From Promethearchaeota archaeon (GTDB lineage Archaea; Asgardarchaeota; Thorarchaeia; Thorarchaeales; Thorarchaeaceae): DNA of 39,409 bases. Shown piece by piece: positions 1,921 to 35,808 of this stretch. The first letter of the stretch is position 1, and every line of letters starts with the position of its first letter. The notes under the pieces are model-generated. The model was not told the DNA's origin, searched no databases, and saw only the letters and a list, made by a program, of their open reading frames with translations. Both the position numbers and the translations under genes were made by a program. The stretch spans positions 1-39,409 of the forward strand of contig WJMJ01000028.1 of NCBI GenBank assembly GCA_014728035.1, read 5' to 3'.

Positions 1921-4900
1921 TTAACCAACTACACATACTGATGTACCACAGTCTTTACACGTCATACAACCCTCTTTATGGTCGATATTAACTGAACCAC
2001 AGTTCTCACATGTAACATCCGATAGAAATGCGTCACGGAAACAACCATCTCTAAATATTGTCATCCCCTTACAACCGGTCACAAATCCCTGAATGATGAT
2101 AGACTTTACATCTTCAATCGTGGCCTCGTTTGGCATGTTGATGGTCTTTGATATCGACATTTCAACATGTTCTTGTACAGTTACCTGCATTCGAACATGG
2201 TCTTGCGGTGATATCTCACTGGCTGTGATAAATACATTATATTTCTCTGGTAGTTTGCCCTCTTTAACCAAGGTTCGAGGGGTCTTTCCAGTTGAAATCA
2301 TCTCACTCAATATATCTTCTAATCCATCTTCTTCTAATTGTTTCTTGAAACTCTGAGCAACAACAATCGCTGGTGGTTTACCTTCTCTGTTCATCTGATA
2401 TGCCATACTGAAGAACGGTTCTATACCAGAACTAACACCAGCAATGAATGAGATTGATCCTGTTGGAGCAATAGATGTTATGGTTCCATTTCTTCGTGGT
2501 AATCCATCACCAGTCTGCCATGCTGGGTAAATTCCATCTATATCTTTGAGTCTTATACTCTCGTTCAATCCTGTTGACTGAAGATATGATATTATCTCAC
2601 GGGTTACCTTGATAGCCTCATCACTTCCATATGTGATCCCCATCATCGCTAATACATCAGCGAGTCCCATCATACCAAGACCTATCTTTCTTGTTTCTTT
2701 TGCAGCTCGTTCCATCTGTGGTAATGGATAGTTATTCTTATCGATGATAGAGTTAAGCAGTTGAACTAATGTTCTGATGGTCTTTGATAGTTTCATATAA
2801 TCTATCACCCATCTATCATTCGTTTTCTTTATATGTTCCATCAGGTTTACAGAGGCTAGACAACAACTCTCCCAATAATATAATCCAGTTTCACCACAGT
2901 TTCGTATAATAACACCAGTTTGTCGTGTAGTTGATTCGAGATTTGTCACAACTGCATAATTATTATATCTTGGAACTGTTAAATTGAATACATCTTGTTT
3001 ACCAATATATTCAATTGATAATACTTTACGGTCATCTTGTTCATCAAAATTACAATGCTGTGAAATAATATCACTATCACGATTATAATATTCTGCAATC
3101 ATTTTATGTTCTGGTAACCATCGTTGTTCTCTCTCGTTTGTACTAACTGCCCAATATTTTGTTGATTTTCTTTTTGGTGAATATTCGCAGCGATTAAATG
3201 GCATGAGAGAATCACCTTTGTTTAACTTGTCAACTCTCACATACTCACCAGTTCTAAGCATCATTCTGTGGTTTGCTGTAACATCTAAAGATGAACCATC
3301 ATTAAATGTCACTCTATAGACTTCAATATCATATCCAGTCTTTCTTGGGGCAACAGCCGTTTCAACTACAATTCGTTCGCCATTGAATGAATAGACGGGT
3401 ACTTGTTTACCATCTTCAGCTAACTCTCTTATAGGAACTTGTCCTCTACCATCTGCAACAGCAATAAGTGTATCACCAGTAATACATGGATTTACACCTT
3501 GAATGTTTCCCATCGATGGAGTGGTGTTGCCACGTTGAATAGTATCCCAATATAATACACCTGGTTCTCCATTTGTCCACATCGACTTTGTTATCCTATG
3601 AAATAGATCATTGGCGGACATTGCTGGTCTATCAGCCTCAATCATTGGATCATAAGCCGGAAATGGTCTGCCGTTTCTTGGATTTATGAATACAATCTCA
3701 GCATTACGTTCTAACTTATCAAAGAACTCATCTGTTAATCCAATACTGATATTAAATGTGGATAGTTCTCCATCAACATCCTTTGCATGTAACCAGCGAA
3801 GAACATCGGGATGGTCATATTTTAAGATACCTATATTAGCCGCACGTCGTTTTCCACCCTGTTTTATCACTTGTCCAACCACATCAAACATCCTAAGAAA
3901 ACTAACAGTACCAGAAGAGGTTCCACCGGTCTTTTGAATGATATCTCCAGTTGGTCGTAGTTTAGAGAAGTTCATGCCGGTATTGTGTACAGCAATAAAA
4001 GACGAACTACCAGCAAGATAATTCTCATATTTATCAACAGTGAAGTCATAAAACGATTTTTCTTCTTTGATATGTTCTATCTTCTTTATCTTCGTTTTTC
4101 TACTGATTGTGAACCTTTCACCACGATGTTGTTTTACCGTTGGAAATAACTTTGTCATTGATGTTGGGAATGTAACTTCTGCCCATGTTCCTCTGATTTC
4201 ATTATCGGACTCTAGGTTATTACGTTCTCGTATGGTACTATTCACCCCAATCAACGATAAATGTCTCGATATACATTCAGCCATTTCTCTATTCTTAGTT
4301 GAAATACCACTTTTTCCATTACCGATATACCCGTCTGAATCAATTAATCCAGCAATGAACGCAAACGGATTTGGACATAAGAAACCAAGTGGTGGTATTT
4401 GTTTAGATTGAGTAATATCAGAGTTTAGATTAATTACACGTTTGAAAAATCTTTGTGCTTCAGAATTTGCATTACCATGTTTACTATCTACTACACATGT
4501 AATCTGAACACATGACAGACCTCTATCATCAGTATATAGATTACCAGATGAACCTGTATATCGCATGAAAATAGATTGTACTCGTTCTAACATGTCTTTC
4601 TTTTTATCATAAAATCTCAATCTAACTCCCTGTTTTCCTTCATCGATACTTCCATTTCCAAGAAAATATCCATACAACCACCAGAAATCTGGTTCATCAT
4701 TTATAAATAATCTATCAAATATTGATGGCGTCAAGATATAATCATTCTTACTTAATTCATCTGCTCGTTTTTCTATTATCTTGTTAAACGTTAAACTATT
4801 ATTTTTTCTCCATACTAGAAACTTATGCCAAGGTGTTACTTCTATCATACCATGATTACCAAAATGAACACGATAATATTCATCTTGTTTAAATCTCCAT

Positions 4901-5373
4901 AGGTGTGTTACTGTTCCGTGAGTAAATGTACTAGAATGTTTGTCGAATGAAAATACGGTGAAAGGAGTACATTCGTATGGTTGTTCATCTTCAGGAATAT
5001 CATTAAAAGTAGGTATGTTTTCAATTGGAATGAAACCAAATTCATGTGTTGGTATAATAGTACCAGATGCACAACATCCGCCACCATGTTTTTGAATGAT
5101 TGCGGTTGACTTTACAGCCTCCATTATTCCTTCCAAATCATCAGGAAGAGGAACAAGATTACAGGCTGATAAATAACCCGATTCTAGTCCACTGTTCATC
5201 AGTGTGGGACTATTTGGTAGTCCTCTACAGTTTACTAATACGTCATAATAATCTTTGAACTGTTCAGGTGTGTCAGCATGAAAGTCTGCTACACGACAGC
5301 ACATCTTTTCCCAATCCTCGCCTGGTTGGAAGTATCGTTCTTTTAAGAAATCTTCTGCTATATGATTAACCAT
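1921..5373 (-). CDS. nrdJ: Class II (adenosylcobalamin-dependent) ribonucleotide reductase with two inteins (about 589 aa spliced)
   Basis: PNSPTLMN, LSAC, GGG|TGMNFSKLRP, QGGKRRAAN, GEPG, NP|CGE (thiyl radical Cys), ESCCLASVNL, IAPTGSIS, SISKTINMP and a C-terminal Zn ribbon. Confidence 0.93.
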   Translation of the reverse strand: MVNHIAEDFLKERYFQPGEDWEKMCCRVADFHADTPEQFKDYYDVLVNCRGLPNSPTLMNSGLESGYLSACNLVPLPDDLEGIMEAVKSTAIIQKHGGGCCASGTIIPTHEFGFIPIENIPTFNDIPEDEQPYECTPFTVFSFDKHSSTFTHGTVTHLWRFKQDEYYRVHFGNHGMIEVTPWHKFLVWRKNNSLTFNKIIEKRADELSKNDYILTPSIFDRLFINDEPDFWWLYGYFLGNGSIDEGKQGVRLRFYDKKKDMLERVQSIFMRYTGSSGNLYTDDRGLSCVQITCVVDSKHGNANSEAQRFFKRVINLNSDITQSKQIPPLGFLCPNPFAFIAGLIDSDGYIGNGKSGISTKNREMAECISRHLSLIGVNSTIRERNNLESDNEIRGTWAEVTFPTSMTKLFPTVKQHRGERFTISRKTKIKKIEHIKEEKSFYDFTVDKYENYLAGSSSFIAVHNTGMNFSKLRPTGDIIQKTGGTSSGTVSFLRMFDVVGQVIKQGGKRRAANIGILKYDHPDVLRWLHAKDVDGELSTFNISIGLTDEFFDKLERNAEIVFINPRNGRPFPAYDPMIEADRPAMSANDLFHRITKSMWTNGEPGVLYWDTIQRGNTTPSMGNIQGVNPCITGDTLIAVADGRGQVPIRELAEDGKQVPVYSFNGERIVVETAVAPRKTGYDIEVYRVTFNDGSSLDVTANHRMMLRTGEYVRVDKLNKGDSLMPFNRCEYSPKRKSTKYWAVSTNEREQRWLPEHKMIAEYYNRDSDIISQHCNFDEQDDRKVLSIEYIGKQDVFNLTVPRYNNYAVVTNLESTTRQTGVIIRNCGETGLYYWESCCLASVNLMEHIKKTNDRWVIDYMKLSKTIRTLVQLLNSIIDKNNYPLPQMERAAKETRKIGLGMMGLADVLAMMGITYGSDEAIKVTREIISYLQSTGLNESIRLKDIDGIYPAWQTGDGLPRRNGTITSIAPTGSISFIAGVSSGIEPFFSMAYQMNREGKPPAIVVAQSFKKQLEEDGLEDILSEMISTGKTPRTLVKEGKLPEKYNVFITASEISPQDHVRMQVTVQEHVEMSISKTINMPNEATIEDVKSIIIQGFVTGCKGMTIFRDGCFRDAFLSDVTCENCGSVNIDHKEGCMTCKDCGTSVCVVG
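2899..3486 (-). mobile_element. Intein 2 in RNR at the catalytic NPCGE site (196 aa, mini-intein with an HNH-like remnant)
   Basis: Starts CITGDT after NP, has block B 'VTANHRM' and ends IIRN before Cys+1 (CGE). Confidence 0.9.
3982..5076 (-). mobile_element. Intein 1 in RNR with LAGLIDADG homing endonuclease (365 aa)
   Basis: Starts CCASGT after GGG and ends AVHN before Thr+1. LAGLIDADG-like motifs LYGYFLGNG and FIAGLIDSDG. Confidence 0.92.
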
Positions 5374-6126: not shown

Positions 6127-6499
6127 AGTATTCACACTCTTCGGTTTCTTGACCACGAATAATAGCAGCACCGCAATTGAAACAGAACATCCCTTCAGTG
6201 TATTTTCTTGGATTACCTATGATTGGTATCCATCGTTCAGTAGCCATTGATATTATCATTGGTACCATTTTCATGAAATATGATTCTACCTCCTTCATCA
6301 CTCTCTTGAGTAATATCTGTTCATTCAATGATGATCGTAGTGAGGTATCTGACTTTTTTACTATCATTGACTCTTCATGAAATATTGTTGGTACTGGCGT
6401 TCTCCATTGGTAACTCTTTTGTGGAAGAGGTATATCACTTGTTGATCCAGAAGCTGGAATATAACTAGGATTGAACGTTACGTAATTATAGCCCGTCAT
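6116..6499 (-). CDS. Hypothetical protein with C-terminal Zn finger
   Basis: CFNCG...CEYY; in series with its neighbours. Confidence 0.55.
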   Translation of the reverse strand: MTGYNYVTFNPSYIPASGSTSDIPLPQKSYQWRTPVPTIFHEESMIVKKSDTSLRSSLNEQILLKRVMKEVESYFMKMVPMIISMATERWIPIIGNPRKYTEGMFCFNCGAAIIRGQETEECEYYGR

Positions 6500-6503
6500 G
6501 ATA

Positions 6504-6722
6504 TCACTTCTTTATGATTGCAAATGTGCCATCTTGTTTGATGATATAGTGTGTCTGTACCTCTTTCAATATAGCACCATATTCTTTTCCTGATACCTCT
6601 GAATACACGGTCATGTGTATTGTATCATCTTCTACATCCACCACAAATCGTCTATATGTACTTCTAGCACCAGCTTGTGCTAACAATAGACCATATGTGT
6701 ATAGTTGTTTTTTGTTTATCAT
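6504..6722 (-). CDS. Hypothetical protein
   Basis: 72-aa ORF tightly packed between genes, GGTGA Shine-Dalgarno upstream. Confidence 0.55.
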   Translation of the reverse strand: MINKKQLYTYGLLLAQAGARSTYRRFVVDVEDDTIHMTVYSEVSGKEYGAILKEVQTHYIIKQDGTFAIIKK

Positions 6723-6728
6723 TTTTTA

Positions 6729-8231
6729 TCACCTTAAATATGGGGTCTGTGATGTATCAACCTCAAACCCATGTTTCATCCATGTCGTCTTTCGACTTAT
6801 AGCATGGTCGGTCAGATATTTTCCTCTGTCCGCAAAGTCAAATATCTTACAGTCAACCTTTCCATCCTCTGGTCGCATGGCACGACCAACTTTTTGTAAT
6901 GTCTGAATAGCACTCTTACCACCATCACCAATGACCAATGCGTCGAGTCCCTTAAAGTCGAATCCTTCGCCGATTATACCCTCAGTACTGATAAGGGTCA
7001 TAAGGTCACGTTGTTTGAAACGTTTTAGGAGTTCATCCCGTTCATCATGAGTACCATGTACAAACTCAACCTCGTGGGTCGCGTCAGAAGAGGCCATATT
7101 TAACAGCTCTTCTCCATGATCTATCCTATCAACGAATATAAGGGTACTCCTTCCCTCTGCAAACATATCATTAGCGATGTTGATTATCTTTCTGTTTCGT
7201 TCACGATTATATACTATACCCATCTGATACATATCTTGCCATCTATCACCACTACTTGATGGTATAGACTTGACAGGAATGAACGTTATACGAGGATCAA
7301 TGAGCCAACCATTCTCTATGAGTGGTGCCTTTTTGATATCATGGATGATATCACCATATGCACCGATTGTTTTGATGTTCTCTCCATCCTCACGCATTAG
7401 AGGGGTTGCTGAGAACCCAATACGATAGTAAGCGTCTATCTTCATACTTGTATTATATGAGGTATTAGTACTACCATGATGACACTCGTCTTCTATCAAC
7501 ATTCCCCATCCATATGAACGATGTATATCCATCAGTTCGTTCCAATCCTTTGGGCGTTTCATAATACTTGCCAAGGATTGGGTGGTGGTGATGGTGATGA
7601 GAGAAGGTTCATATTTTCCATCTCCGATCATTCCGATATCATTTGGATGAATATTGATGGTGTTGGTTATCTCTCTATACATCTGCTTCATCAATACAAT
7701 CCGTGGAACCTTGATGAGGGTGGTGGTCTTCAGGCGACCAATCAATAGAGCAATCATCACTGTCTTACCGCTAGCGGTTGGTGATTTTATGATACCTCTA
7801 CCATTCTTTAGAATGGCTTGAATTGCTTCTTCTTGGTATTCTCGTGCTTCTCGTTTTGGTGACCAGTCAACATCTTGAAGAACAGGTGGTCTTGTACGCT
7901 CATTCTCTATGATTATCTCTTCTCCTCGTACACGTAGTAATGATAGGTAGGTTGATGTACAGCCTGTTGGAATCCACAGACTCTCTCCAAATTTTCTTCC
8001 GATAAACTTCTTCCCATCCCAACGTAACGCACGACACCATTCACAGGAACACGTTGCTGATGATGATTGGCAGACCCGCCTCTCTTTTCTTAGCCTTTCC
8101 ATCCATTTGTTTCGTCTTATCTCCCAATTCTTCATCGTAAAACTTGCGACCTCTTCAGCATAATCTAACATCGAAGGGTCATCTGAGTATATCTTTGTCC
8201 ATATATTTTGAATGATAAGTGTCGTTGTCAT
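6729..8231 (-). CDS. Superfamily 2 helicase (UvsW/XPB-like)
   Basis: Q-motif REYQ, Walker A SPTASGKT, DECHH, GFSATP, GEGFD and QKVGRAMR. Confidence 0.92.
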   Translation of the reverse strand: MTTTLIIQNIWTKIYSDDPSMLDYAEEVASFTMKNWEIRRNKWMERLRKERRVCQSSSATCSCEWCRALRWDGKKFIGRKFGESLWIPTGCTSTYLSLLRVRGEEIIIENERTRPPVLQDVDWSPKREAREYQEEAIQAILKNGRGIIKSPTASGKTVMIALLIGRLKTTTLIKVPRIVLMKQMYREITNTINIHPNDIGMIGDGKYEPSLITITTTQSLASIMKRPKDWNELMDIHRSYGWGMLIEDECHHGSTNTSYNTSMKIDAYYRIGFSATPLMREDGENIKTIGAYGDIIHDIKKAPLIENGWLIDPRITFIPVKSIPSSSGDRWQDMYQMGIVYNRERNRKIINIANDMFAEGRSTLIFVDRIDHGEELLNMASSDATHEVEFVHGTHDERDELLKRFKQRDLMTLISTEGIIGEGFDFKGLDALVIGDGGKSAIQTLQKVGRAMRPEDGKVDCKIFDFADRGKYLTDHAISRKTTWMKHGFEVDTSQTPYLR

Positions 8232-8458
8232 ACTTCTTTTACACTTTCCTTCACAATCTTTATCTCATCGATACGTTCTTTATATTCAATGATATAACCA
8301 TTATCATTCTTTTCTTCATCATATTTATTCAGTTCAAGTAAATCTTGTATCAATTGCAATACCTCTTCAAGTGATAAATCGTTAACATTATCTCTATACG
8401 CACCATATGTAAACGATTCTGGGTTCCAATGAACTGAATATCTCACTACACGTATCAT
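8228..8458 (-). CDS. Hypothetical protein
   Basis: Likely start ATG 8458 (MIRVVRY) after a GGTGTGAG SD and a TTTAAATA box; ATGA overlap with the helicase. Confidence 0.5.
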   Translation of the reverse strand: MIRVVRYSVHWNPESFTYGAYRDNVNDLSLEEVLQLIQDLLELNKYDEEKNDNGYIIEYKERIDEIKIVKESVKEV

Positions 8459-8532
8459 ATTTTTCTCACACCAAAACTTTACATCAAATCTATTTAAACA
8501 TGTTGTTATTACATTACCAAATAACACCCCAA

Positions 8533-8551
8533 AACGACAAACTTTTATATG
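8533..8551 (+). promoter_or_regulatory. BRE-TATA promoter for the actin-terminase run
   Basis: ACGACAAACTTTTATATG upstream of a GAGGT SD and ATG 8592. Confidence 0.5.
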
Positions 8552-8591
8552 TTTAGTACTTGTCAAATACACCTAACTAGAGGTAAAAACA

Positions 8592-9692
8592 ATGTTTGAT
8601 GACCCAGACATACCACATCATCCTAAGATTTTCGGTGTAAAAATCGGTAGTAAGTATACTGTTATCACTGATGGTGAAACAATCAGAAAGGAAGTAACAG
8701 TTATTCGCCGACGCCCCGTTGATCTCAAAGGTAACTATGAATATAATTTTAGTCGTCAGGCTGAGGGATGGAGCGATAGTCTATACCCCCTTAAACAGGG
8801 AGTTCCCCGTAATGACTCATTGATGTCAATTGCGGAGTCTATCAAACTAACATCTGCTTATACAGAATGGTTATTACAAGACATTCCAGACAAAGCAGGT
8901 GTCGTTGTATGCCTTCCACTCATTCGAGACCATGAAGGACTTAGCGCTCTCAAGACGGCAATCAGGCAATCCACTCCAGCTGAAAAAGGACTTCAGTTCT
9001 TTTCTGAAGCATGGGGTGCAGCATTAGGAACACTTCCAATCAGAGAGGCTGTTGGTACAAATGTATTAACAATGAACTTTGGTAGCTCAACTGTTGAGGT
9101 AACAATGCACGCCTCGAAGGTGTTAGTAGAATCAAATGTATATACATTTGGTGGAAGTGAGATTGATCGCAGACTTATCAATGCCATTGAACAATCCCAT
9201 CGAGGAACCAAGGCAACCGAGTCTGACGCACGAGCAATCAAAGAACAATATAGTTGGACAGAGAACAATGACGTTCCAGCAACCCTATCGAAAGAAGGGG
9301 CAAAACATGAACTTGTTATAGCTGGTGATATCATTCGACCAATCGTATCAAATGCTATCGATCATCTTGTTCATCTTATCAGAACTCAGTTCCTGCGTTC
9401 CGCTGAGATGAGTGATCCAGAAGCAGTTGGTTCATTACAAGGTTCTGGTAGAGGATATCTAGTTCTATGTGGTGGTATGGTCAACATGCCAGGTTTCGCA
9501 AAAGAACTATATGATAGACTCATCGAGATTGGAGCCATAAATGAATCAGTGATACTTGCAGTTCCAGAGGATGGTGTTATTGCACCAGCGATTGGAGCAT
9601 GGAAGGTTGGACAGGTTCTTGAAGACGCAAGACAAGAACGAAATGTTGATTCTTGGGACCGTATGGTCGATGAATCAGTAGATACAGAGTGA
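8592..9692 (+). CDS. Actin-fold ATPase, MreB/Salactin-like
   Basis: Phosphate-1 GVKIGSKYT, connect-1 SEAWGAA, phosphate-2 MNFGSSTVE, GGSEIDRRL, ARAIKEQY, adenosine motif LVLCGGMVNMPG and connect-2 APAIGA; 366 aa. Confidence 0.88.
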   Translation: MFDDPDIPHHPKIFGVKIGSKYTVITDGETIRKEVTVIRRRPVDLKGNYEYNFSRQAEGWSDSLYPLKQGVPRNDSLMSIAESIKLTSAYTEWLLQDIPDKAGVVVCLPLIRDHEGLSALKTAIRQSTPAEKGLQFFSEAWGAALGTLPIREAVGTNVLTMNFGSSTVEVTMHASKVLVESNVYTFGGSEIDRRLINAIEQSHRGTKATESDARAIKEQYSWTENNDVPATLSKEGAKHELVIAGDIIRPIVSNAIDHLVHLIRTQFLRSAEMSDPEAVGSLQGSGRGYLVLCGGMVNMPGFAKELYDRLIEIGAINESVILAVPEDGVIAPAIGAWKVGQVLEDARQERNVDSWDRMVDESVDTE

Positions 9693-9982
9693 TTAACATG
9701 ACAGAAACAGAAATACAAAAACTACAGACTGAGATTAAAGAACTGAAACAAGAGATTAGTGAGGCAAAGGGAGACATGTTTTCCTTTACCAAAGAAATCA
9801 CTAAACTACAAAACCAGATTCAAGAGATAACCAAATATCTCAACTTTCATACACATCCATTCATAATGGAATCTGGCATTGGCCGTTATCGAGAAGACTT
9901 ACTCGAAGAAGCCATTAAACAACAACAACAACGACAACAACAACAACGTCCTCAACCTACGCCAGAGAACGCGGAGGAATAA
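9689..9982 (+). CDS. Small coiled-coil protein with Gln-rich tail
   Basis: Heptad pattern IQKLQTEIKELKQEISE...ITKLQNQIQEI; GTGA overlap with the actin gene. Confidence 0.7.
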   Translation: MINMTETEIQKLQTEIKELKQEISEAKGDMFSFTKEITKLQNQIQEITKYLNFHTHPFIMESGIGRYREDLLEEAIKQQQQRQQQQRPQPTPENAEE

Positions 9983-9985
9983 TCA

Positions 9986-10486
9986 ATGAGGACGTTTTTT
10001 GAGGTTATCTCGACTGTTAACCGTTGGTTACGTCAACGATATTCCTCTACGTCCTCAACACCACGTATATTCTGGAATCAGATAATGGTGGTACTTGGTA
10101 TCATCATGTTGAAACAGGAGAACATCGCTCCTACACTAGGGAACCTAGAACGATATACTCCTGTTCCAAAATCATCTATCTATCGAACACTTAAGGTGTT
10201 AGAAGAAGAATCTATCCTGATTCAGAAAGAAGACAAATCATATGGATTCTATGGTGAAGTGCCACAAGATATATTAGAACTTTCCACAAATAGAACACCT
10301 GTAGAACTAGGTGGACTTGTTGAAGAGATTGAATCTGCTATGAAAAAACAGATGAAACAAATGCTTCAAACTCTACCTCTACAACAAGACCAAATCGAAC
10401 AGGTGTCGAAACGCATTGATACCATCAAACCCGAGAAGAAGGAACTTGATGCCTTATCGAGCCTCGTTGGAGATGGTTTCATGTGA
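9986..10486 (+). CDS. Winged-HTH DNA-binding protein with C-terminal helical region
   Basis: TLGNLERYTPVPKSSIYRTLKVLEEESILIQKEDKSY (IclR/TrmB-like wHTH). Confidence 0.75.
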   Translation: MRTFFEVISTVNRWLRQRYSSTSSTPRIFWNQIMVVLGIIMLKQENIAPTLGNLERYTPVPKSSIYRTLKVLEEESILIQKEDKSYGFYGEVPQDILELSTNRTPVELGGLVEEIESAMKKQMKQMLQTLPLQQDQIEQVSKRIDTIKPEKKELDALSSLVGDGFM

Positions 10487-10498
10487 GGCACTACAGTT

Positions 10499-11464
10499 AT
10501 GGAATCACACCACGTGGAATTCATTGGACACGACGGACAGACATACCACTACGACACACGTATCAGAGATGATAGTGTAGCTGGTCATCCAGTTAAGATG
10601 ACCAGTTTTCACTCCGTCGTTGATCCACATTGGAGTACATCATACCTACTTTTAGTACAACAGGCAGAACGAGAGGCTCGACATGAGATATGTGGAGCAG
10701 AGACCCAGAAAGGTTCTCCTTGTAAACAATATCCATTAAAATTAGAAGATGAACCGTATCCAGATGAGATTGGTCGTTGTAGTAGACATAGACCTTCAAT
10801 GAAAAAAGAAGAACCTTCTTCACCACCACCAACTTCTATCGCCTTATCTCCGTCTCGTTCTCCACCACCAGCACCAACTGACTCTCGACTTGCTGACACC
10901 CTGATGGATATAGCAGACGAGCATTTCTTCTTACGTTGTCAGGCATGTATCAACAGGGTACAATGTGATGAGAGGGGAGGAGCCAACGATATATGCATGA
11001 AGGAAAAACGTCTCTTCCAACAGTTGTTGGTGGAGATGATAGAGACATATGACTTGGAAGATGTGGCTGATTATTTCACATCAGTGAGTGTAGTAGACAC
11101 GATGATAAAAATAATCAGAACAAGTGCATATGAGGGTCAGTACGGAATCATTGAGTCCATAAACTCCGGTAATGCGCAATATAACATCCATCTGAAGAAA
11201 CTATTGAACAGCACCCTTAAACTACTTGGTGTTGATAGAAAGACCAGAATCAGTGTGAGACATAAGAGCGGTAAGGTCGAGATGTTCTCAGGTAGTATTG
11301 CAAAGGCTCTAGCCTCAGCAAAGATCACAGACGCTGAGGTTATAGACGCGACCAAACAGATGGAAAAGGATATCAAAATGGAAGAACCAAAGGGAACCAG
11401 AAAGGGCCCAGCTGTTGGTATCCATGGTAAAATTATAAAGGATGATGAACCTATTGAGTCCTAA
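10499..11464 (+). CDS. Putative terminase small subunit / Zn-binding DNA-packaging protein
   Basis: ICGAETQKGSPCKQ...GRCSRH (HGGxSTG-like Zn module), a second CQAC..C..C cluster, and it overlaps the terminase large subunit start. Confidence 0.5.
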   Translation: MESHHVEFIGHDGQTYHYDTRIRDDSVAGHPVKMTSFHSVVDPHWSTSYLLLVQQAEREARHEICGAETQKGSPCKQYPLKLEDEPYPDEIGRCSRHRPSMKKEEPSSPPPTSIALSPSRSPPPAPTDSRLADTLMDIADEHFFLRCQACINRVQCDERGGANDICMKEKRLFQQLLVEMIETYDLEDVADYFTSVSVVDTMIKIIRTSAYEGQYGIIESINSGNAQYNIHLKKLLNSTLKLLGVDRKTRISVRHKSGKVEMFSGSIAKALASAKITDAEVIDATKQMEKDIKMEEPKGTRKGPAVGIHGKIIKDDEPIES

Positions 11465-14165
11465 GAAGAAGAAAAAAAAATTAGAAGAGAATATAGAGCT
11501 GACGGCAGAGCTCATCGCTCGGGTGAAGAGAGACCCTGTTGCGTTTGCTCGTATATTCTGTAAATTTTATCCTCATTGGTACCAAGTCAAGATTCTTCGT
11601 GATATGTCAAAAAATATCGCGATACGGATGGGAAGACAGATGGGTAAGACAGCTGCCACTGCAATCAAGGCACTGTGGTATGCATTCACCCGTCCTGAAG
11701 CTTCAACACCACAGGAACAGGTGACCATTGTAATCATCGCTCCATCCCAACGACAGAGTAAAATCATGTATAATCAAATCAGGTCTTATATTCATGCTAA
11801 CCCTATACTTGAGGCAAGTGTCATCAAGAGTACACAACAGACAATCAAACTTGATAATAATTCTGTGATATACAACTTTCCAGTAGGCGACTCTGCTGAA
11901 AAGGTACGAGGATTCTCAATCAATCTACTCATCGTTGACGAGGCCGCATTTATCAAGCAGAGAATCTTCACTGCTATCCTACCTTCACTAGCTGGAACGA
12001 ATGGAAGTCTTATTCTCATCGGAACGCCTGCCTCGCGAACAGGCCTATTTTACCAAGCGTTCTATCCAGGTAAAGACGGTAGTGGTGTAAAGTTACGATT
12101 CAGTACTCATTGGTATCCATATTCTGACGCTTTAGATGTACAACGTGTTGATAAAAACGGTGTACCATTGTTTGATAAAGATGGTAATCCTATAACACAA
12201 TTATCGCGTGACTGGATTGAATATCAATACACAAGTATGAGTAAGGGAGAGTTTGCCCAAGAGTTCGAGGCAAAGTTTGTTGATGAGAGTCTGGGATACT
12301 TCACACGAGAAGACCTTATTGCTAATGTTGAAGACTATTCAATGGAACATGTACATGATGGTGAGAGTGTATATGCTATGGGTGTTGACTTTGCTAAATA
12401 TCATGACTCCTATGTAGCACTGGTCATCAAACGAGACATAAATGGTATCACTAGGGTTGTATATACTCTAGAGGCACGAAATAGAAACTATTCTGAGACC
12501 GTACCATTGACCATCAAGATTGCAAAACGATTCAGATGTCGTTATGTATTCTGTGATAGTACCGGTGTCGGTGAACCAAATGCTGAAATCATAGAGAAGG
12601 AACTAAAGGGTATATCAATTGTCAAATCAGTCAATATGAGTAGTCTTCAGAAACAGATAGATATGTATTCCAATCTTCAACGAATGTTTGGTGAAGGGGT
12701 ATTGAAGATACCAGCTTCGAATCGTGAACTCATCAGTCAGTTGTCGTTGGTGATGAGAACAATAACACCAAGTGGACGGGTAAAGATTGAAGCAGCAGAA
12801 GGACAACATGACGACTTTTGTTTTGATGGTTCAACAAAGGTTCAAACAACAAACGGATATATAGATATTAGTAAGATCAAAAAAGGTGATATAGTATTAA
12901 CATCGTCTGGTCATAAAAAGGTTATCAATACGTCAGAACGCGAGATTAATGAACTTGTCTATAGAGTGAAAGTAAAGGGAAGACCAACATTTACTTGTAC
13001 AAAAAATCACCCCTTTAAGACAGTTGATGGTGATTTTGATATAATTGATAACCTTCAATACTTGCGAAAGGATTTTATTAAACTTAATGAACGAAGATTC
13101 ATTGATTTGGCTGAAATCCAATATGATGAAGGAAAACACGGGTCAAGCAAGATTATAGTAAATGAAGATACTATCTCTTATATGAATGGTAGATTAACGA
13201 CACTACCAAGATATATACAACTTGACTATGATTTTGGGTTTATCATCGGAGCATATCTAGCAGAAGGAAGCATTGGTGCACATGACATACAATTCACATT
13301 GAATAAAACTGATGACCCCTTAATAGAAATAATAAAAGAAAAATTCAAGAATGTGTTTGGTTGTGAATTGAGCTATATCGAACATGATAATAATTCTTGT
13401 AATCTATACAAGAGTTCATTGATATTAAGAAAATTATTCAAAACATTAATACCAGGAATTTCATCATCAAAGAGGATACACCCACTACTATTCTCAAATA
13501 AGGATTTCCTACGTGGATTAATTGAAGCCTACTATAAGGGCGATGGTTGTATTATTAATAATGGAAGAGGATTTTCTGTTTCAACAAATAGTTTGAATCT
13601 TGCATATCAAATTACTGATATATTGAACCTATTTGGTATTTATGGTAATATTCACACTTCACATAGAAAAGGAAAGTCAATGAATCTTCATGAACATAAA
13701 TATACCCATAATCATAACTTACACCAGATACGTATTTCAGGTTCATGGTATGTCAATAAGTTTATTGATTTATTTTGGAATGAATATGAACATATATCAG
13801 ATAATAAATTTCATTATTGTAAAGAGAAATGGTATGATGATTTCGTACTTATTCCATTCAAGAAGAATGAAATAGAATATATCGGTTCTGTATATAACTT
13901 ATATATTGATGACGTGAATGAATTCTCAATTGGTTCAGCTACTGTACATAATTGTGACGCATTAGCCTTAGCATGTATGATGACTGTAAATAATCCCAAT
14001 CCTCCAAAGACATTAGCTACATCAGTAAAGAGTGTTTTCTCTAAGAAAACACATAGGCATACCGCAACCACACCACAGAGAAGAAGACAACAGACACCAT
14101 ATAGACAAGTAGCAGTGTTCGATGAGAGAGGACGAATAATAGGAACTAGAACAGAACAACGGTGA
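11442..14165 (+). CDS. terL: Terminase large subunit with one intein (about 529 aa spliced)
   Basis: HWYQ adenine motif, Walker A GRQMGKT, Walker B LLIVDEAAF, LIGTP coupling motif, and nuclease motifs GVDFA, DSTGVG and HDDF|CDAL. Confidence 0.95.
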   Translation: MMNLLSPKKKKKKLEENIELTAELIARVKRDPVAFARIFCKFYPHWYQVKILRDMSKNIAIRMGRQMGKTAATAIKALWYAFTRPEASTPQEQVTIVIIAPSQRQSKIMYNQIRSYIHANPILEASVIKSTQQTIKLDNNSVIYNFPVGDSAEKVRGFSINLLIVDEAAFIKQRIFTAILPSLAGTNGSLILIGTPASRTGLFYQAFYPGKDGSGVKLRFSTHWYPYSDALDVQRVDKNGVPLFDKDGNPITQLSRDWIEYQYTSMSKGEFAQEFEAKFVDESLGYFTREDLIANVEDYSMEHVHDGESVYAMGVDFAKYHDSYVALVIKRDINGITRVVYTLEARNRNYSETVPLTIKIAKRFRCRYVFCDSTGVGEPNAEIIEKELKGISIVKSVNMSSLQKQIDMYSNLQRMFGEGVLKIPASNRELISQLSLVMRTITPSGRVKIEAAEGQHDDFCFDGSTKVQTTNGYIDISKIKKGDIVLTSSGHKKVINTSEREINELVYRVKVKGRPTFTCTKNHPFKTVDGDFDIIDNLQYLRKDFIKLNERRFIDLAEIQYDEGKHGSSKIIVNEDTISYMNGRLTTLPRYIQLDYDFGFIIGAYLAEGSIGAHDIQFTLNKTDDPLIEIIKEKFKNVFGCELSYIEHDNNSCNLYKSSLILRKLFKTLIPGISSSKRIHPLLFSNKDFLRGLIEAYYKGDGCIINNGRGFSVSTNSLNLAYQITDILNLFGIYGNIHTSHRKGKSMNLHEHKYTHNHNLHQIRISGSWYVNKFIDLFWNEYEHISDNKFHYCKEKWYDDFVLIPFKKNEIEYIGSVYNLYIDDVNEFSIGSATVHNCDALALACMMTVNNPNPPKTLATSVKSVFSKKTHRHTATTPQRRRQQTPYRQVAVFDERGRIIGTRTEQR
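12819..13952 (+). mobile_element. Intein with LAGLIDADG endonuclease in the TerL nuclease domain (378 aa)
   Basis: CFDGST...TKNHPF...IIGAYLAEGS...LIEAYYKGDG...TVHN|C. Confidence 0.92.
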
Positions 14166-14169
14166 TCGG

Positions 14170-14877
14170 ATGAAAACGTATTCTTCTATAACCGCTAGTA
14201 GAGATACCATGTTATTTCAGCGTATATTACTACGGTTTATGTTATTGATTATGATTATATTAACTATATTGATATGGTTTCATTATACAGAAGTAGGAGA
14301 TATTCCACTTACTATTGTTATCATCACTGTTATTCCACCATCACTCTATAGTTTTGTACGAATTATAAATTATAGTAAACGGGAGATAATCAACTTATTA
14401 TCACCTTCAGGAAGTAGAAAGATATTCAAAACATTATCTACATTCATGTCTCATCCTGTTGAACTGATTATCATTCCTGCCTACATTGCAGCAGTGTTGT
14501 ATCTATACCTATCATCAACAGGAATCGCTTTCTATACAAGTACAACAATCATCGTTGCTGTTATATATGCTACACAGATATTACCACTCATGATTAAAAG
14601 AGAACTTCATATACGAGCCTCAAAACGAGCATTAAATTATGTTCGTGATGAAATAAAGACCACCAGAATCATCTTATTCAATGATACTTTCTCAGAGGAG
14701 GATAAAGATTTAGCATTATCAAGACATATTGCTGCTGAGGAATTGATGAGTGTTCATAGTGATTATCTTATATATTCAACTGGTATAAGCGGAACATTCA
14801 TAATGATTGCACGTCTTATACTACCCGTGTTCACAGGAATAGGTGGTCAGATAATACAACCTATGTTGGGTGGATGA
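14170..14877 (+). CDS. Polytopic membrane protein of unknown function
   Basis: About five long hydrophobic segments; 4 nt after terL. Confidence 0.75.
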   Translation: MKTYSSITASRDTMLFQRILLRFMLLIMIILTILIWFHYTEVGDIPLTIVIITVIPPSLYSFVRIINYSKREIINLLSPSGSRKIFKTLSTFMSHPVELIIIPAYIAAVLYLYLSSTGIAFYTSTTIIVAVIYATQILPLMIKRELHIRASKRALNYVRDEIKTTRIILFNDTFSEEDKDLALSRHIAAEELMSVHSDYLIYSTGISGTFIMIARLILPVFTGIGGQIIQPMLGG

Positions 14878-14880
14878 AAA

Positions 14881-15891
14881 ATGCCCATTCATGTTCTAAC
14901 AAGTTATAAAGGTGGTACCGGTAAAACAAGCATCGCCTTAGCAATCGCAATATATTGTATTGAAAATAACATCAATTTCACACTTATTGATACAAATCCT
15001 CAGAACTCTAACATTGCTGAAGATATATTCTTCTACTTTCATGTTGATCATGTTACGAGTGATGTACCTTGGATTTTCAAACAAAAGACAGTATATACAT
15101 TATCACCAGACAGTAGTTCAATATTTACTATTATCGATGGAACGAACTGTGACCCATATTCGGTCGTAGATTATTTACAACGGAGTTCTGATGATCCTAA
15201 TCACGTCTATGTGATTGACACAAATGTGCATATCAGAAGCTGTCCAGAACAATTATTATCACAAGACGCTATTCACAATACATATGTATGGTTTTTATGG
15301 GGATGGTCAAGTCCTCGTTTAGATCATCAACTTCATTCTATATTAGAGGCATCTAAACGGATAGAACAGACTTGGCCAAAGTCTCAAGTTATCCATGTAT
15401 TTAATCTATATGACTTTTATACATCAGGGTTACAATTATTTGGTTTTAGGAAAGCAAGTACAACATTAAGACCACTCAAGAAGGTATTAAAAAGACTTGA
15501 TAAGAAGGTAAAACGGTTTACTGAGTCTAAATGCAAGCCAACATATATTGATTATGATTTCTTATCTATCATCATGAAAGAATTACATGGTACATTAGTA
15601 CGTTTTGTCTCAGATGATTCATCATTACAAGAGTTACCAATTTTGTGGGGAACTCATCTCATGGATATAATGGAGAGAACCAAACGAGACTATCCTTATA
15701 ATATCTTATTGATTCCTACATTCTTTAGAGAGTTAACTATGTCTGTTGATAGATTAATAATGTCCGCGCCAAGAAGATTTGATACGATACATCAATTGAT
15801 TAAACCGATGGCGGATTATATTAACGTATTTTTATGCAACTTAGCAAGTTGTAGTGATATACGATTTGCAAGAGATCATTATCTATCATAG
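14881..15891 (+). CDS. MinD/ParA-family ATPase (divergent C-terminal half)
   Basis: Deviant Walker A KGGTGKT with signature Lys, switch I LIDTNPQ and Walker B YVIDT. Confidence 0.82.
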   Translation: MPIHVLTSYKGGTGKTSIALAIAIYCIENNINFTLIDTNPQNSNIAEDIFFYFHVDHVTSDVPWIFKQKTVYTLSPDSSSIFTIIDGTNCDPYSVVDYLQRSSDDPNHVYVIDTNVHIRSCPEQLLSQDAIHNTYVWFLWGWSSPRLDHQLHSILEASKRIEQTWPKSQVIHVFNLYDFYTSGLQLFGFRKASTTLRPLKKVLKRLDKKVKRFTESKCKPTYIDYDFLSIIMKELHGTLVRFVSDDSSLQELPILWGTHLMDIMERTKRDYPYNILLIPTFFRELTMSVDRLIMSAPRRFDTIHQLIKPMADYINVFLCNLASCSDIRFARDHYLS

Positions 15892-15976
15892 TTCCGTCGG
15901 TGTATTTAAATTGGATTAGTACGATGTCCTAGTGCAGATGTTCCACTAAACCTGGACATTCGATACACGTCTAGCA

Positions 15977-16663
15977 TTGGAAGGTGACAGTACGACCTAT
16001 AGACTAGCTGTTTTAGAGGGTCAAATGGGTCGAGCAGGTACCGAAATCGGTCTGCGACGTACATACACACTCAATCGACGTGAAGAAGAAGATCAAGAAG
16101 ATGTAGTTGAATCAGAACCAATAGAGGAGCCAGAAGAAGTGGCTGAAGAAACAACTACACCTGTTAAAGAAGAATCAATAACTGAAACCCCTCCTACCGA
16201 ATCAACTCCTACTGAAGAAGTTGTTGCTGAGGAGACCGTCGAGACCCCAAAAGAAGAAGAGGTGAAAACTGAAGAACCTGAACCAGAGCCAGAACCCGAA
16301 CCCGAACCTGAGCCAGAGGTTGAAATGGTTGTAGAAGAACCAAAACCAGAAAAAGAGATTCTGGAACCTTCTCTAAAGTTAACCTTTGACCCAGAACCTC
16401 CAGTCTATGTTGAACAATTTCAACAGGTCATTGGAGAGATACATGGTCTTGAGCCAAGTGGTTCTATTTATATTACTGTTGAGAAAAGTACTTCAGACGA
16501 AAATGGTTGGATTTTATGGACAGAGAGACAAGCGAAGTTCAGCGGTGAAAGAACATCTGCCTACGCTTCAATCTCATCTTCTTGGTCTTCTATCTCTTCC
16601 ATTTCTTCCATATCATCAAATTCGTCCAATAATGAATCTCTGAAAGTATCATCTTCATCATAG
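15977..16663 (+). CDS. Acidic low-complexity protein with Pro-Glu repeats
   Basis: E/T/P-rich coding pattern with varied synonymous codons in (PE)n; TTG start uncertain. Confidence 0.6.
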   Translation: MEGDSTTYRLAVLEGQMGRAGTEIGLRRTYTLNRREEEDQEDVVESEPIEEPEEVAEETTTPVKEESITETPPTESTPTEEVVAEETVETPKEEEVKTEEPEPEPEPEPEPEPEVEMVVEEPKPEKEILEPSLKLTFDPEPPVYVEQFQQVIGEIHGLEPSGSIYITVEKSTSDENGWILWTERQAKFSGERTSAYASISSSWSSISSISSISSNSSNNESLKVSSSS

Positions 16664-17902: not shown

Positions 17903-19694
17903 AACATTCATGTGATAATACCTCGTCTTCGGGTAGTACCTTACCACATTTACCACAGGTAACACCAGTAGTAGATGGTGATGGAACAGAGCTTGTTACT
18001 GAAGCAACCTGATCAATCACTTCTTTTGGGGCAGAACCCTTTTGCTTGGCCAGTCCGTCAGTCTGTGACTGTGGACTAGGTTGTGCCTGTGGTTGTGCCT
18101 GTGATGTCTGTGTCGTTGGTGTTTGTGTTACGGTTGTTGTTGGTGCCTGTGGAGTAGACACTTTTCGTCCGCTTCTCTCCTTCTCCATAAACGCCTCAAC
18201 GATTGGTCGTTGATGTGGTTCTTGGAACTGTGGAGGAAGTATTCCCTTGAATGAAGAACTCATCATCGCATCATATGAGGTATCAACACCCATTGCGTCG
18301 AACACAGTATTGATTGCAGATGTCAATTTCCCAAAACCACCATCAGTAGCATCTTGTGGACTAGGCTGAGTGGTAGGTTGTGGCTTCGGTTGACTCTGAG
18401 GTTGGGTCTCGGCCTTAGTAGTTGGAGTTGGAGTTGGAGTTGGAGTTGGAGTTGGAGTCTGAGAGGTATCACTAGCAACAGCACTCTTGGGAGTGTATCC
18501 TTCAGGTGCGTCAGTTGCAGTGACCGTTGGTGATGGTGATGGTGCTTTCTTACCTTCAACACCAGCAGGTACTGAACCAATAAAGGTTGCATCTATTCCG
18601 TACCAAACACTCTCTTCACCTTGGAACTCATTCTCACGAACGCTGATAATAGTACCAGCTACAACAACTTCAAGACCACGCCACATATCTGTTAGCTCGG
18701 CCCATCCATCCTTAGCACCACCAGCTGGTGCTGCGGCTGCATTTCGTAATAAAAGATCAGCATCGGAAATCATGATTTTATGGTCACCGAACTTGGTTCT
18801 CTGCATCTGAACAGATACACGATTTCCGGTGATGTTATCCTCGTTATATAGCGTCAGCTTCAAGACATACTGTTCTGTGTTAGAACCATCAGCCTTTGTC
18901 TGAATAAGAGGTTCACCGATACCATCTGGGGCCTGCTTGTACCGCATTTTAGGGATAGGATGTCCCTGTGCATCTGTTCTGATACTTCCATTCTCATCTA
19001 TCTCATAGACAGGATTCCCATATGAATCAGTCTGAGGAACTAGTTCATCAGTGTCAACCCATCGTTCAACAGGCATTACTGCTCCAATCTTCCCTCGTAA
19101 TAGTACTGGTTCATATTTATCCTCGGGTGTCAACATATCAATATCCACAGCTCTCTCAGCTAAGAATTTTTTGATTTCAGATTCAGGTAATGGTGTAGCA
19201 TTTATAATCATCTTACCATCAAAACTGATTCCCTTCTTACCACTCTTATATGTGAACTCTTTTTCTGCTACCTTTACGGTTACTCTCTGAAAAGAGGGAG
19301 CGGGAATAGCAGAACCACTAGGACCAATATTATGACCCCAACCTGAAAAAGCACGAACCTCGCCTTCATCGGTAACGATAAGATGATTCTGTCCTCTTAC
19401 CTGTTCAATAGGAGTTGTGAACTTTTTGATATCTCTACCACCAACCATTACACCGGTCCAATCATCGAGTGAATCAATCTTCTTTTGTGCTTTGGCTCGA
19501 TTTGCGAAAAACCGTTTTAAGGTTGATAGTTTATATTCTCGTTTCTTAGGATCATGATACACTGGACGTACCAAATCCTCTGTGACGTACTTTGCAAGGT
19601 CTGAAGGAACCATTGATTTAACTATGTTCGTAGCCTCTTCTATGGTATCATAGTCCTTGAGATGTACGGTATGATAAAAGTTGTCTTCTGACAT
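17901..19694 (-). CDS. Putative ssDNA-binding (OB-fold-like) protein with long P/T/Q linkers and C-terminal Zn finger
   Basis: Beta-rich core (GLEVVVAGTIISVRE...WYGIDATFI), disordered PT/QP tracts and CGKCG...HEC; sits between the primase and the Sak4-like ATPase. Function inferred from context. Confidence 0.5.
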   Translation of the reverse strand: MSEDNFYHTVHLKDYDTIEEATNIVKSMVPSDLAKYVTEDLVRPVYHDPKKREYKLSTLKRFFANRAKAQKKIDSLDDWTGVMVGGRDIKKFTTPIEQVRGQNHLIVTDEGEVRAFSGWGHNIGPSGSAIPAPSFQRVTVKVAEKEFTYKSGKKGISFDGKMIINATPLPESEIKKFLAERAVDIDMLTPEDKYEPVLLRGKIGAVMPVERWVDTDELVPQTDSYGNPVYEIDENGSIRTDAQGHPIPKMRYKQAPDGIGEPLIQTKADGSNTEQYVLKLTLYNEDNITGNRVSVQMQRTKFGDHKIMISDADLLLRNAAAAPAGGAKDGWAELTDMWRGLEVVVAGTIISVRENEFQGEESVWYGIDATFIGSVPAGVEGKKAPSPSPTVTATDAPEGYTPKSAVASDTSQTPTPTPTPTPTPTTKAETQPQSQPKPQPTTQPSPQDATDGGFGKLTSAINTVFDAMGVDTSYDAMMSSSFKGILPPQFQEPHQRPIVEAFMEKERSGRKVSTPQAPTTTVTQTPTTQTSQAQPQAQPSPQSQTDGLAKQKGSAPKEVIDQVASVTSSVPSPSTTGVTCGKCGKVLPEDEVLSHEC

Positions 19695-19696
19695 TT

Positions 19697-19744
19697 TTAC
19701 ATCACTTACATTATTACATTATTACACTATTACACTCAACATTA
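19697..19744. repeat. Tandem imperfect 8-mer array (TTACAYTA) in the leader of the SSB-like gene
   Basis: ttacatcac ttacatta ttacatta ttacacta ttacactc aacatta. Confidence 0.8.
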
Positions 19745-19897
19745 GTATGTCAGGTCTAAGTGTATCAATAAATCAGTACCAAATACTTAAAAAGTTTTTT
19801 CTCGGACAAAAAAAGTGGCGGTTTAAATAATGAGTATGACAAAACCCTTAAAACCATAAACCACTAGATAACATACTCAGACAACGGAGTACTGCAT

Positions 19898-22800: not shown

Positions 22801-23431
22801 GATGATTTGTATCACTTCTCCTCATCCTCCTCATGGCGCACATGATTGGTTGGCTGCATGGTATCATGAACAAGGATTACTTCGTGAAGAAGAGGTCGAA
22901 GAATTGGGAAAACATCTATCTAACAATTCCGCCAAGGCATCATTTTACCAGACCATTGGTCGTGCTAAAGACCCAGCATGTAAGGATAGAAGTGTTGTAT
23001 ATGCATTTGGAATAAAAGGAAGTCGTGATCTCATTGATTCTACTAACCTAGGAGTTGGTGATCTTATGATGTTTGAACCGGATATATCAATCCCTCATAT
23101 CACCATGACATCAAGAGAATTTGCTCATACTGATATAATACCAAAGATTGGAAGGGCATGGATTGACGCTCGGATAAAATTAAACATAATAGAATTAAGA
23201 CTATTTAGTAAAGTTTATGAATATGGAAGCTTTAATACTACACAGACTAAAAAACTGTTGGCGATATACTCCCGAGAAGAAATCGAGGAGGCTATTGCAA
23301 AGAGAATCCAAGAATCTGGACATGCGGTGTTTAAACAATTCGACATTGAGATAGAACCTGTATTCAACCCGCCTAATGGACCTTGGTCATATAAGTTACG
23401 GAGAATAAACGATGGTCCGATATCTAGTTGA
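19898..23431 (+). CDS. Primase-helicase fusion: AEP (PriS) + PriL-like Fe-S domain + SF2 helicase
   Basis: AEP motifs ILDLD, SGTGIH and IDLSIF...IRWTYSIN. PriL-like APCI...PRVVLVRYL..KG...PGCKKMR...CELC. Helicase motifs TTRAGVTT, LLDEVS, TDATLP and QTIGR. Confidence 0.8.
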   Translation: MNINIFSTFESVNYQWMKDADSYANERSGKWGWYGSIRDVSYSLPFHRTLMGVDHTYFILDLDPELITYEEDPSYLKKYEPTRYREILIRGMIEIVHEFLEDIKPHEFFAKLSGTGIHLIQRVDERIDKRRFKTVIREICKPCSQHLVEDHVCNEHCDGWNFSQQYNRTQHKWIKNKDQWSRYFTTSTGTVIQVNIDLSIFSSRRHLIRWTYSINKKIPQMPNYSIPIDFWDADWVLEHMTLRGLTKHPPHYYEIPSFSFDHALMDEETLHSSSPKQKDSSYYRQDRDLSYHIEVPDVDAELTQDQLRKIKDMKDVLTGDIAETAPCIVEHYNRSTTLAAQFWPRVVLVRYLSSKGYSPSDIALFIRFHINDDDDNLPHNQEKLFTGVKEAYGSLDDPDMVPGCKKMREHEFFGVINDPNLCELCGRRYPTSTHRDLQGVKEEKDDGFNEIMRLARNILLGGESSVIKKTTRAGVTTSIIAMAKLVGKRLLVVTPTNRIGETTIPNALKIAKETLGIDIRGAMFAANKKACLKLVLIDKTLRHRRKVEPNWGNNPDKLAYDHLHYQTRPRCEDCIFSQEYFDTLRYHENDPSSFPVPILHSEVYNWFPSKDEKDIDGKCAYTTIKAWLSEIDVMFTTYSKLNALMVNDTEDAQMLSDAIAKHFDVILLDEVSYLTNQSPLIVPIIQKRAHFRPHTSIKKYSIDIFEDIENETDRMSTILPTSTTTTAVRILSDFKRSQIHLRQQPPVDRYTKIKINKPGSIIDKSDYDEIQTKFTAFHGLIEHAAKEHNIHLEKSEDLFHLLHTPRWIEVSLPTKFHPIDVSLIAEPDVSLLRRFIRHFHDDRRQVLVTDATLPYVDISKFLGIDLVDQMVGDPRGTNDHQLVVADSRRISVLDLFFGGNAQRYQEELEDYINMICKEHGADNVIIVTPNKWTYYNIYNRMVDGKIPTCDMTWYRSDRTVGVECDKRVMICITSPHPPHGAHDWLAAWYHEQGLLREEEVEELGKHLSNNSAKASFYQTIGRAKDPACKDRSVVYAFGIKGSRDLIDSTNLGVGDLMMFEPDISIPHITMTSREFAHTDIIPKIGRAWIDARIKLNIIELRLFSKVYEYGSFNTTQTKKLLAIYSREEIEEAIAKRIQESGHAVFKQFDIEIEPVFNPPNGPWSYKLRRINDGPISS

Positions 23432-34212: not shown

Positions 34213-35808
34213 TTATTCTTTATTCAAGACATAATCAATATAATCAAGGACAGAATTATTCCATCCAAAGATTTGAATGATATCATATTCTTCTCGAACG
34301 TCTTCAGGAAACGGTTGTGAATCATATGAATCTATTCGGATTAAAATAGCTTTGGCCATCGGGAACTTACGTTTGTAGGTCTTCCACCAACCTAACCATC
34401 CATCACCAAATTCGATGGTATCGGTAATCCAAATCAGTGTATCGAATTGTAATCGGTTCCACCGTTTTGGTCTCTTGGTACCTCGTACTGCCAAACTACG
34501 ATTATATCCATGAGCACTTTGTCCATCTATATGTCCGTTCAACATATATTTTAATGGTAGTTCCATAAATGTTCCACCACCACCAGTTCTCTTCACCGCT
34601 TCAGTCATTGAAATGATTGAATCATTCTTTGGTGGAGCAGTGTATAGTGATGTTGACCATGGAAAGATATCCGATTCTTCAATCCCTTTGTATAGTACGA
34701 CACCAAATAACGCAGCGATGTCGATATATGCTAGTGAACTTTTATTGAAGTTCAGTGTCATTGAACCTGATACGTCTGGACAGACTGCTACTCGCCCCCA
34801 ATTAGTGAAATCATACTTTGGTAGGAATTCTTCCATGACACTCGCAAGACCATTTCGAAATCTTGTGCTAGTGATTTGTTGAAAGGCTTGAAACACCCTG
34901 AAAGGAAATACCTTCGCCTTTAACAGGTTCTCAGCACTGATTCGACCATCTTTTCCTAACAAGAAATCATAGACTTCATCGTCCTTATCAAGATCATGAC
35001 GTTCGAATGTTGCTAGATGTCTTAACAATGCAAATACCCCCATCTGTCTCATCATTATCTTCCATAGTTCGGGAGATTTTGGGAGCATTGATAGTACAGA
35101 ATAATCTAGTCTCCCTTTCTTGATAAGTCGTTCAACATTATCAAGATCAGTAGGATCAATCTGTTTTATCTCTTCAAACGCCTGAAGTTTCTCAAGTTCA
35201 GGTGGAATCTCATATTCTTCATCCTTCCATTTATTATCATACTTACGCATGAGATATTGAATGATTTTGAATGAAGTATCATCAATGTCTTCTTCTGAAG
35301 GTCTTGATACTCTGATACCTCGTACAACCTCGTTACCATACTTAATGGCATAAAACTCACTCAGTTTTACCTTTAACCATTCTTTGATGGCTCGTTTGAT
35401 TCCACGACCAAATCCTCTACCTCGTGCCTGTCTTGCGTCCATAAAATCTGATAAATCGTTACCAGTTCTGATAACATCATTAAAGATACGTTGAGCAGTT
35501 TTAATGTCTTTCTCAGATAGAATAGTTAGTGCAAGGATAGGCATAGTTCGCATGAATCCATCGTTTCGAGCAATGGGAACCCATTTCTCAAGTAAATCAA
35601 CCGGTGCACGTTCTAACAACTCAACGGCTTCTCTAGTCATCTCATGTTTACCTGCATAATAAACCTTCTCTAATCTCCCTGTATGAAGTAATTGAATCAG
35701 TCTATCTTCATCATTCATCTTCCATGCTGGGAAATTTTGCTTGTTCTTAGTATCAGCCGTTGCATAGGTAGCAGGACTGATATCTAGTTCTTTAAATTTC
35801 TTTGGCAT
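34213..35808 (-). CDS. rsr: Ro60/TROVE-vWA RNA-binding protein
   Basis: TROVE helical region (R.MPILAL, GRGFGRGIKRAIKEW, KY, ALLRHLATF, KVFPFR) plus vWA MIDAS DVSGSM, GGGT and ITD; 531 aa. Confidence 0.92.
   Translation of the reverse strand: MPKKFKELDISPATYATADTKNKQNFPAWKMNDEDRLIQLLHTGRLEKVYYAGKHEMTREAVELLERAPVDLLEKWVPIARNDGFMRTMPILALTILSEKDIKTAQRIFNDVIRTGNDLSDFMDARQARGRGFGRGIKRAIKEWLKVKLSEFYAIKYGNEVVRGIRVSRPSEEDIDDTSFKIIQYLMRKYDNKWKDEEYEIPPELEKLQAFEEIKQIDPTDLDNVERLIKKGRLDYSVLSMLPKSPELWKIMMRQMGVFALLRHLATFERHDLDKDDEVYDFLLGKDGRISAENLLKAKVFPFRVFQAFQQITSTRFRNGLASVMEEFLPKYDFTNWGRVAVCPDVSGSMTLNFNKSSLAYIDIAALFGVVLYKGIEESDIFPWSTSLYTAPPKNDSIISMTEAVKRTGGGGTFMELPLKYMLNGHIDGQSAHGYNRSLAVRGTKRPKRWNRLQFDTLIWITDTIEFGDGWLGWWKTYKRKFPMAKAILIRIDSYDSQPFPEDVREEYDIIQIFGWNNSVLDYIDYVLNKE

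Follow-up and report, generated by a model that had tools for sequence, protein, structure and literature searches.

Bacterial phages (AlpC, PhuZ) and giant eukaryotic viruses are known to encode filaments of their own. In ParMRC type II partition systems, the gene for an actin ATPase is followed by that of a small ribbon-helix-helix protein that binds DNA and ends in a short, conserved C-terminal tail, and the systems carry parC iterons. The phage actin AlpC and its adaptor AlpA position viral DNA for replication (AlpAC-alpS of the Corynebacterium prophage CGP3; PMC4446434), the PhuZ spindle of nucleus-forming jumbo phages transports capsids (PMC8314001), and salactin of Halobacterium salinarum forms a dynamically unstable filament that has been implicated in DNA distribution (PMC10746226). 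In the searchable literature, with subscription papers outside our coverage, we found no description of an archaeal virus that encodes an actin, nor of any virus-encoded filament from an archaeal virus or in an operon with a terminase.

The operon described here lies on a 39,409-nt contig of a Promethearchaeota metagenome-assembled genome (C161; WJMJ01000028.1), analyzed over its entire length and hereafter called the window. Seven ORFs on the + strand encode an actin (8592-9692), a small coiled-coil protein (9689-9982, with a likely ATG start at 9698), a winged-helix (wHTH) protein (9986-10486), a probable terminase small subunit (TerS-like, 10499-11464), the terminase large subunit (TerL, 11442-14165), a polytopic membrane protein (14170-14877), and a MinD/ParA-type ATPase (ParA, 14881-15891), and the successive gaps are 5 (or a 4-nt overlap), 3, 12, -23, 4, and 3 nt. 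A sequence-only reading of the window had proposed seven co-oriented and tightly packed genes in this order; the ORF coordinates and gaps agree, and the gene identities hold, with the TerS domain matches lying below cut-off. The operon resembles AlpAC-alpS in having a virus-encoded actin-like ATPase next to a putative co-transcribed DNA-binding partner (here predicted), but its actin is of another lineage, it belongs to an archaeal, non-integrating myovirus, no binding-site array was found, and it includes the terminase. With ParMRC it shares the gene order and the C-terminal tail of the second protein, whereas the viral partner is a wHTH protein, parC iterons are absent, and the genes sit inside a packaging operon. 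The likeness to PhuZ is a virus-encoded cytomotive filament that may link DNA position to packaging; PhuZ, however, is a tubulin rather than an actin, the genome here is ~85 kb, and capsid transport, known for PhuZ, is hypothetical here. The operon is real and conserved and appears to be undescribed; it belongs to neither the AlpAC nor the ParMR family and resembles them by analogy.

The 366-aa actin-fold ATPase is related to salactin. It passes the gathering score of the Pfam Salactin model PF25229 (E 6e-27, 95 bits against 27.1) and fails the NCBIfam equivalog NF053533, with 106 bits against a cut-off of 400, where cellular relatives score 404-581. Its AF2 model (pLDDT 90) matches MreB and MamK in Foldseek at a TM of ~0.7, and K17, E139 (the position of the catalytic Glu), and N162 are invariant. 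The protein shares with the salactins of Halobacterium salinarum and the Methanotecta the actin fold, the catalytic Glu, and the phosphate loops with Lys-for-Asp and Asn-for-Asp replacements (GxKxGS and NxGS in the viral protein), while differing in that it is ~22-24% identical to them, is encoded by a virus, is followed by wHTH and terminase genes, and has a probable host outside the Methanotecta. In the actin tree, the viral proteins form a clade (100/100) on a long stem, sister to the true salactins of Methanocella and Natrinema (joint clade 94/90); by this phylogeny, the viral actin is a sister lineage of salactin outside the salactin clade. From homology, it would be a salactin-derived, ATP-dependent filament. 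Searches of INPHARED phages, GTDB genome contigs, and 86 other Thorarchaeia yielded no homologue; among viral structures, identity to the nearest ones does not exceed ~20%. The tree also holds a further salactin-like clade (P0043-P0049), which includes a gene (L131, 511-1500) on a mobile-element-like contig of small genes and a methylase.

All aligned members of the coiled-coil family carry an HxH motif after the coil, a motif also found in metal-binding trimeric phage fibres. The C-terminal half of the wHTH protein is helical and ends in a conserved LxG[DE] tail; the protein gives weak matches to TrmB/IclR/MarR-type models in several family members and is a candidate DNA adaptor or autoregulator. 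The TerS-like protein contains two Cys clusters (C3H and C4) with invariant Cys and is assigned by position and by domain matches that are all below cut-off: its HGGxSTG-like Cys/His finger scores E 0.007, one weak structural neighbour contains Terminase_4, and the sister virus L118 has a homologue next to its terL (E 4e-5). TerL matches phrog_2 (E 2e-40) and Terminase_6N/6C, and its nuclease motif in the window harbors a 378-aa LAGLIDADG intein (12819-13952, +) missing from the relatives, whose TerL proteins are 507-554 aa long with no insert. Among the matches listed in sequenced phages, the best TerL E-value belongs to Halovirus HGTV-1 (Halomagnusviridae; 27% identity), likewise an archaeal tailed virus with Ro60; unlike here, its portal gene closely follows terL, and the sequenced-phage collection holds no actin homologue.

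Hydropathy predicts ~5 hydrophobic segments in the membrane protein, which resembles a bacterial family without a name (0.95). ParA has a deviant Walker A motif, KGGTGKT, with the signature Lys (K10, G11, G12, G14, and K15 are invariant), a SIMIBI fold matching NifH/MinD/ParA, and a basic amphipathic helix at residues 195-213. Its family is sharply delimited, comprising 29 close sequences with the next best no better than E 7e-4, and the gene context was inspected for the members on fetched loci. Beside ParA there is no ParB-type partner by ParB match, the neighbours being the membrane gene and a gene for an acidic protein. Because every locus with ParA also has the membrane gene, a pattern with few events behind it, the two proteins are possibly a membrane landmark and an ATPase that depends on it.

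For the conservation analysis, a protein search yielded 33 sequences including the query, with more distant ones coming from a profile search, giving 13 distinct full-length loci, the window counted, which were mostly ascertained via actin. The actin, wHTH, TerS-like, and TerL genes occur in the same order in 13/13 loci, at identities as low as 34% for actin and 29% for TerL, with the TerS-like gene always directly upstream of terL. The coiled-coil gene is present in 12; in L104, its slot is taken by a Cys-rich 121-aa protein. An order kept in the 12 other full-length loci is not due to chance, and the claim of a single conserved operon joining a viral actin, a wHTH protein, and a terminase is borne out. 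On this comparative evidence, a five-gene core (actin, small partner, wHTH, TerS-like, TerL) dates back to the common ancestor of the family and has been kept from then on. Actin and TerL identities, compared pairwise, correlate with r 0.95, computed over non-independent pairs, and the two trees are broadly congruent. All seven genes occur together in 9/13 loci, spanning both main subclades. The membrane gene is clear in 11/13 loci, weak in L104 (E 0.007), and absent from L012, while ParA is present in 9/13 and absent from L012, L013, L106, and L104, a pattern that corresponds to at least two independent absences on the trees. Gene content thus indicates that ParA and the membrane gene are accessory, optional parts that can be lost. 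The neighbourhood comparison proposed with the earlier reading therefore came out divided: within actin-selected loci, the actin trio never occurs away from terL, whereas ParA and the membrane gene can be absent while terL stays.

No portal or capsid gene lies in the window, as had been noticed before for the genes after terL; a 471-aa ORF first suspected to encode the capsid had no matches, and the capsid gene was located elsewhere. In a near-complete 76-kb relative (IMG/VR 3300029813_000075), an ordinary block of portal, protease, and HK97 capsid genes begins at 49.5 kb, followed by sheath and baseplate genes, and the portal is 42 kb from terL. The sister myovirus L118, found from the terL side (TerL 34%), has a divergent terS/terL pair (6371-8578) beside helicase and baseplate genes, with its portal ~30 kb away. 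No actin was found within 71 kb of this incomplete record, nor were coiled-coil and wHTH homologues found near terS/terL. In both lineages, the terminase lies in the replication/recombination half of the genome. The missing portal had been read as a sign of special coupling between packaging and positioning, and this part does not stand: the separation of terL from the head genes is shared with a lineage without adjacent actin, and hence is no argument for such an apparatus. L118 also implies that the terminase can in principle function independently of actin.

The divergent gap upstream of actin contains a candidate operon promoter (8535-8549, +), in which a TATA box follows a YGACAA element. 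A second TATA box (15904-15911, +) precedes the gene after ParA and marks the probable operon end; it is present in 12/12 loci examined, irrespective of whether the preceding gene is ParA, the membrane gene, or terL. Across nine loci, TATA-like boxes recur at these two places only, and the two internal occurrences are single and not conserved. A single transcript ending at ParA is plausible from the gene spacing. YGACAA-like elements precede actin in 7/15 loci and also the replication operon of the window (at 19837), whereas none was found before the acidic gene (0/12 loci) or at late head or tail starts. Since the actin promoter and the replication operon share the element, expression of the actin operon during replication is favoured, weakly, because the pattern was defined after the fact. 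The operon itself sits amid replication and recombination genes, apart from the head genes. A sigma-70 promoter scan, a model ill-suited to archaea, gave nothing above shuffles, and no centromere-like repeat array upstream of actin is conserved across the loci. Elsewhere in the window, short tandem repeats with 8-nt spacing (19689-19734) lie in the divergent gap between an SSB-like gene and the replication operon. The acidic gene (15938-16663, +) has an apparent start at 15938, with ATG, GTG, or CTG as its first codon within an invariant TGTTCC. At the fourth codon, the window, L008, L098, and L099 read TAA, whereas eight other loci have a sense codon, and the frame is conserved downstream; a leaky stop, editing, or an unusual start are candidate explanations. 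Genome-wide recoding of TAA was rejected, as the other aligned stops fell in antisense shadow frames, and a bulge-helix-bulge intron at the gene start was dismissed after inspection for lack of fit.

The window is a 39-kb piece of a myovirus of ~85 kb; a CheckV estimate of ~150 kb was dropped because overlapping relatives and contigs of 84-90 kb, among them JGI 3300040952, JGI 3300033143, and ENA ERZ25748669, point to the smaller size. The contig is viral by gene content (ribonucleotide reductase (RNR), ThyX, dUTPase, SF2 helicase, Sak4-like annealase, PolB, methylase, Ro60, and five tRNAs), and the set of RNR, ThyX, dUTPase, PolB, and tRNAs looks lytic. The RNR gene (1921-5373) carries two intein stretches, whereas the relatives are intein-free at 585-618 aa, and the Ro60/TROVE gene (34213-35808, -) has a counterpart in Nidhogg viruses. 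TerL in the window, HK97 capsid, portal, sheath, and baseplate genes in the relatives, and a baseplate module on a second contig of the same bin place the virus among the Caudoviricetes of the myovirus type. That module (C159, 1-7899), with identity of up to 80% to the gene of a relative, is a second fragment of the virus; contigs C118 and C54 of the bin also look viral. The publications examined on the described Asgard viruses (Nidhogg, Fenrir, Verdandiviridae, and Chiranvirus) mention no viral actin. The bin encodes its own eukaryote-like actins, and its own actin is 99% identical to that of a Thorarchaeota genome. Viral PolB (23412-28400) has its best named matches in Thorarchaeota and Helarchaeota, and carries two inteins at sites identical to those in the chromosomal PolB of the bin (C44, 190560-195653). 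The second intein is 48-66% identical between virus and bin over most windows of the alignment, compared with ~20-46% for the N-terminal extein; the greater likeness of the intein suggests intein exchange between the virus and Thorarchaeia. From co-binning and the shared PolB inteins, a Thorarchaeia host is likely, short of proof because the bin's two short CRISPR arrays contain no spacer matching the virus.

We give about even odds (~50%) to the reading that the operon encodes an actin-adaptor module, analogous to AlpAC and ParMR, which determines the position of viral DNA during replication and is expressed together with the terminase. By this analogy, the wHTH protein would bind viral DNA and tie it to the actin filament, and the coiled-coil protein would nucleate the filament or serve as a linker; replicating DNA would thereby be moved to, or gathered at, a defined site, and the terminase, made from the common transcript, would start packaging from the gathered DNA. 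The membrane protein and ParA would form an accessory layer. The invariance of the five-gene core, the co-divergence of actin and TerL, the tight junctions, and the lack of a recurrent internal TATA-like box speak for this model, as do the intact actin fold with its catalytic Glu and salactin-type phosphate loops. Against it stand the lack of a conserved centromere-like array, the resemblance of the wHTH protein to ordinary regulators, and the L118 terminase without nearby actin. A closer coupling, in which the wHTH and coiled-coil proteins would join the filament to the TerS-bound genome end, and actin would carry DNA and terminase to proheads at a site marked in most lineages by the membrane protein and ParA, is doubtful, although direct filament-assisted packaging, as with PhuZ, is possible by analogy.

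The earlier reading went further and saw actin, membrane protein, and ParA as one obligatory apparatus, with two positioning NTPases and a membrane anchor, that brings DNA and terminase to membrane-attached proheads. The co-occurrence of all seven genes in most loci, the restriction of ParA to loci with the membrane gene, and the PhuZ precedent of filament-driven capsid delivery from the membrane (PMC8314001) are in its favor. However, four loci have lost ParA, and one of these the membrane gene too, with terL intact, so that an obligatory two-NTPase membrane machine is unsupported, and the long terL-portal distance recurs in the sister virus without adjacent actin, with an ordinary portal block; we consider this version quite improbable. 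It is no more probable that the actin trio acts as a type II partition system in a plasmid-like, extrachromosomal carrier state of the virus, its link to the terminase being only historical or regulatory. The ParMR-like order of actin and DNA-binding partner would fit, as would the lack of an integrase in four related virus records, the lack of a close terL or integrated copy in 399 other Asgard genomes, and the binning of two virus fragments with the host, but centromere repeats are missing, the gene set looks lytic, and partition cassettes are normally mobile, yet the trio co-diverges with terL. The operon might instead be merely co-regulated, with the wHTH protein as a transcription factor, the actin remodeling or inhibiting the host cell (its shape, division, or actin), the membrane protein serving lysis or exclusion, and nothing positioning viral DNA. 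The regulator-like matches of the wHTH protein, the host's eukaryote-like actins as possible targets, and the nameless bacterial family resembling the membrane protein agree with this. Nevertheless, the adjacency of actin, wHTH, TerS-like, and TerL genes is strict even where the coiled-coil gene is replaced (L104), and salactin, the nearest characterized relative, is implicated in DNA distribution (PMC10746226); we consider this explanation unlikely.

Taken at this strength, the operon suggests that these viruses build a filament that organizes their own DNA inside the cell. Because the core proteins are small and soluble, the positioning model is directly testable in vitro. The operon further offers the salactin lineage a set of candidate DNA adaptors, the link between salactin and DNA having been left unprobed (PMC10746226). 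Its conservation in probable Asgard viruses is relevant to the organization of viral factories in the closest relatives of eukaryotes.
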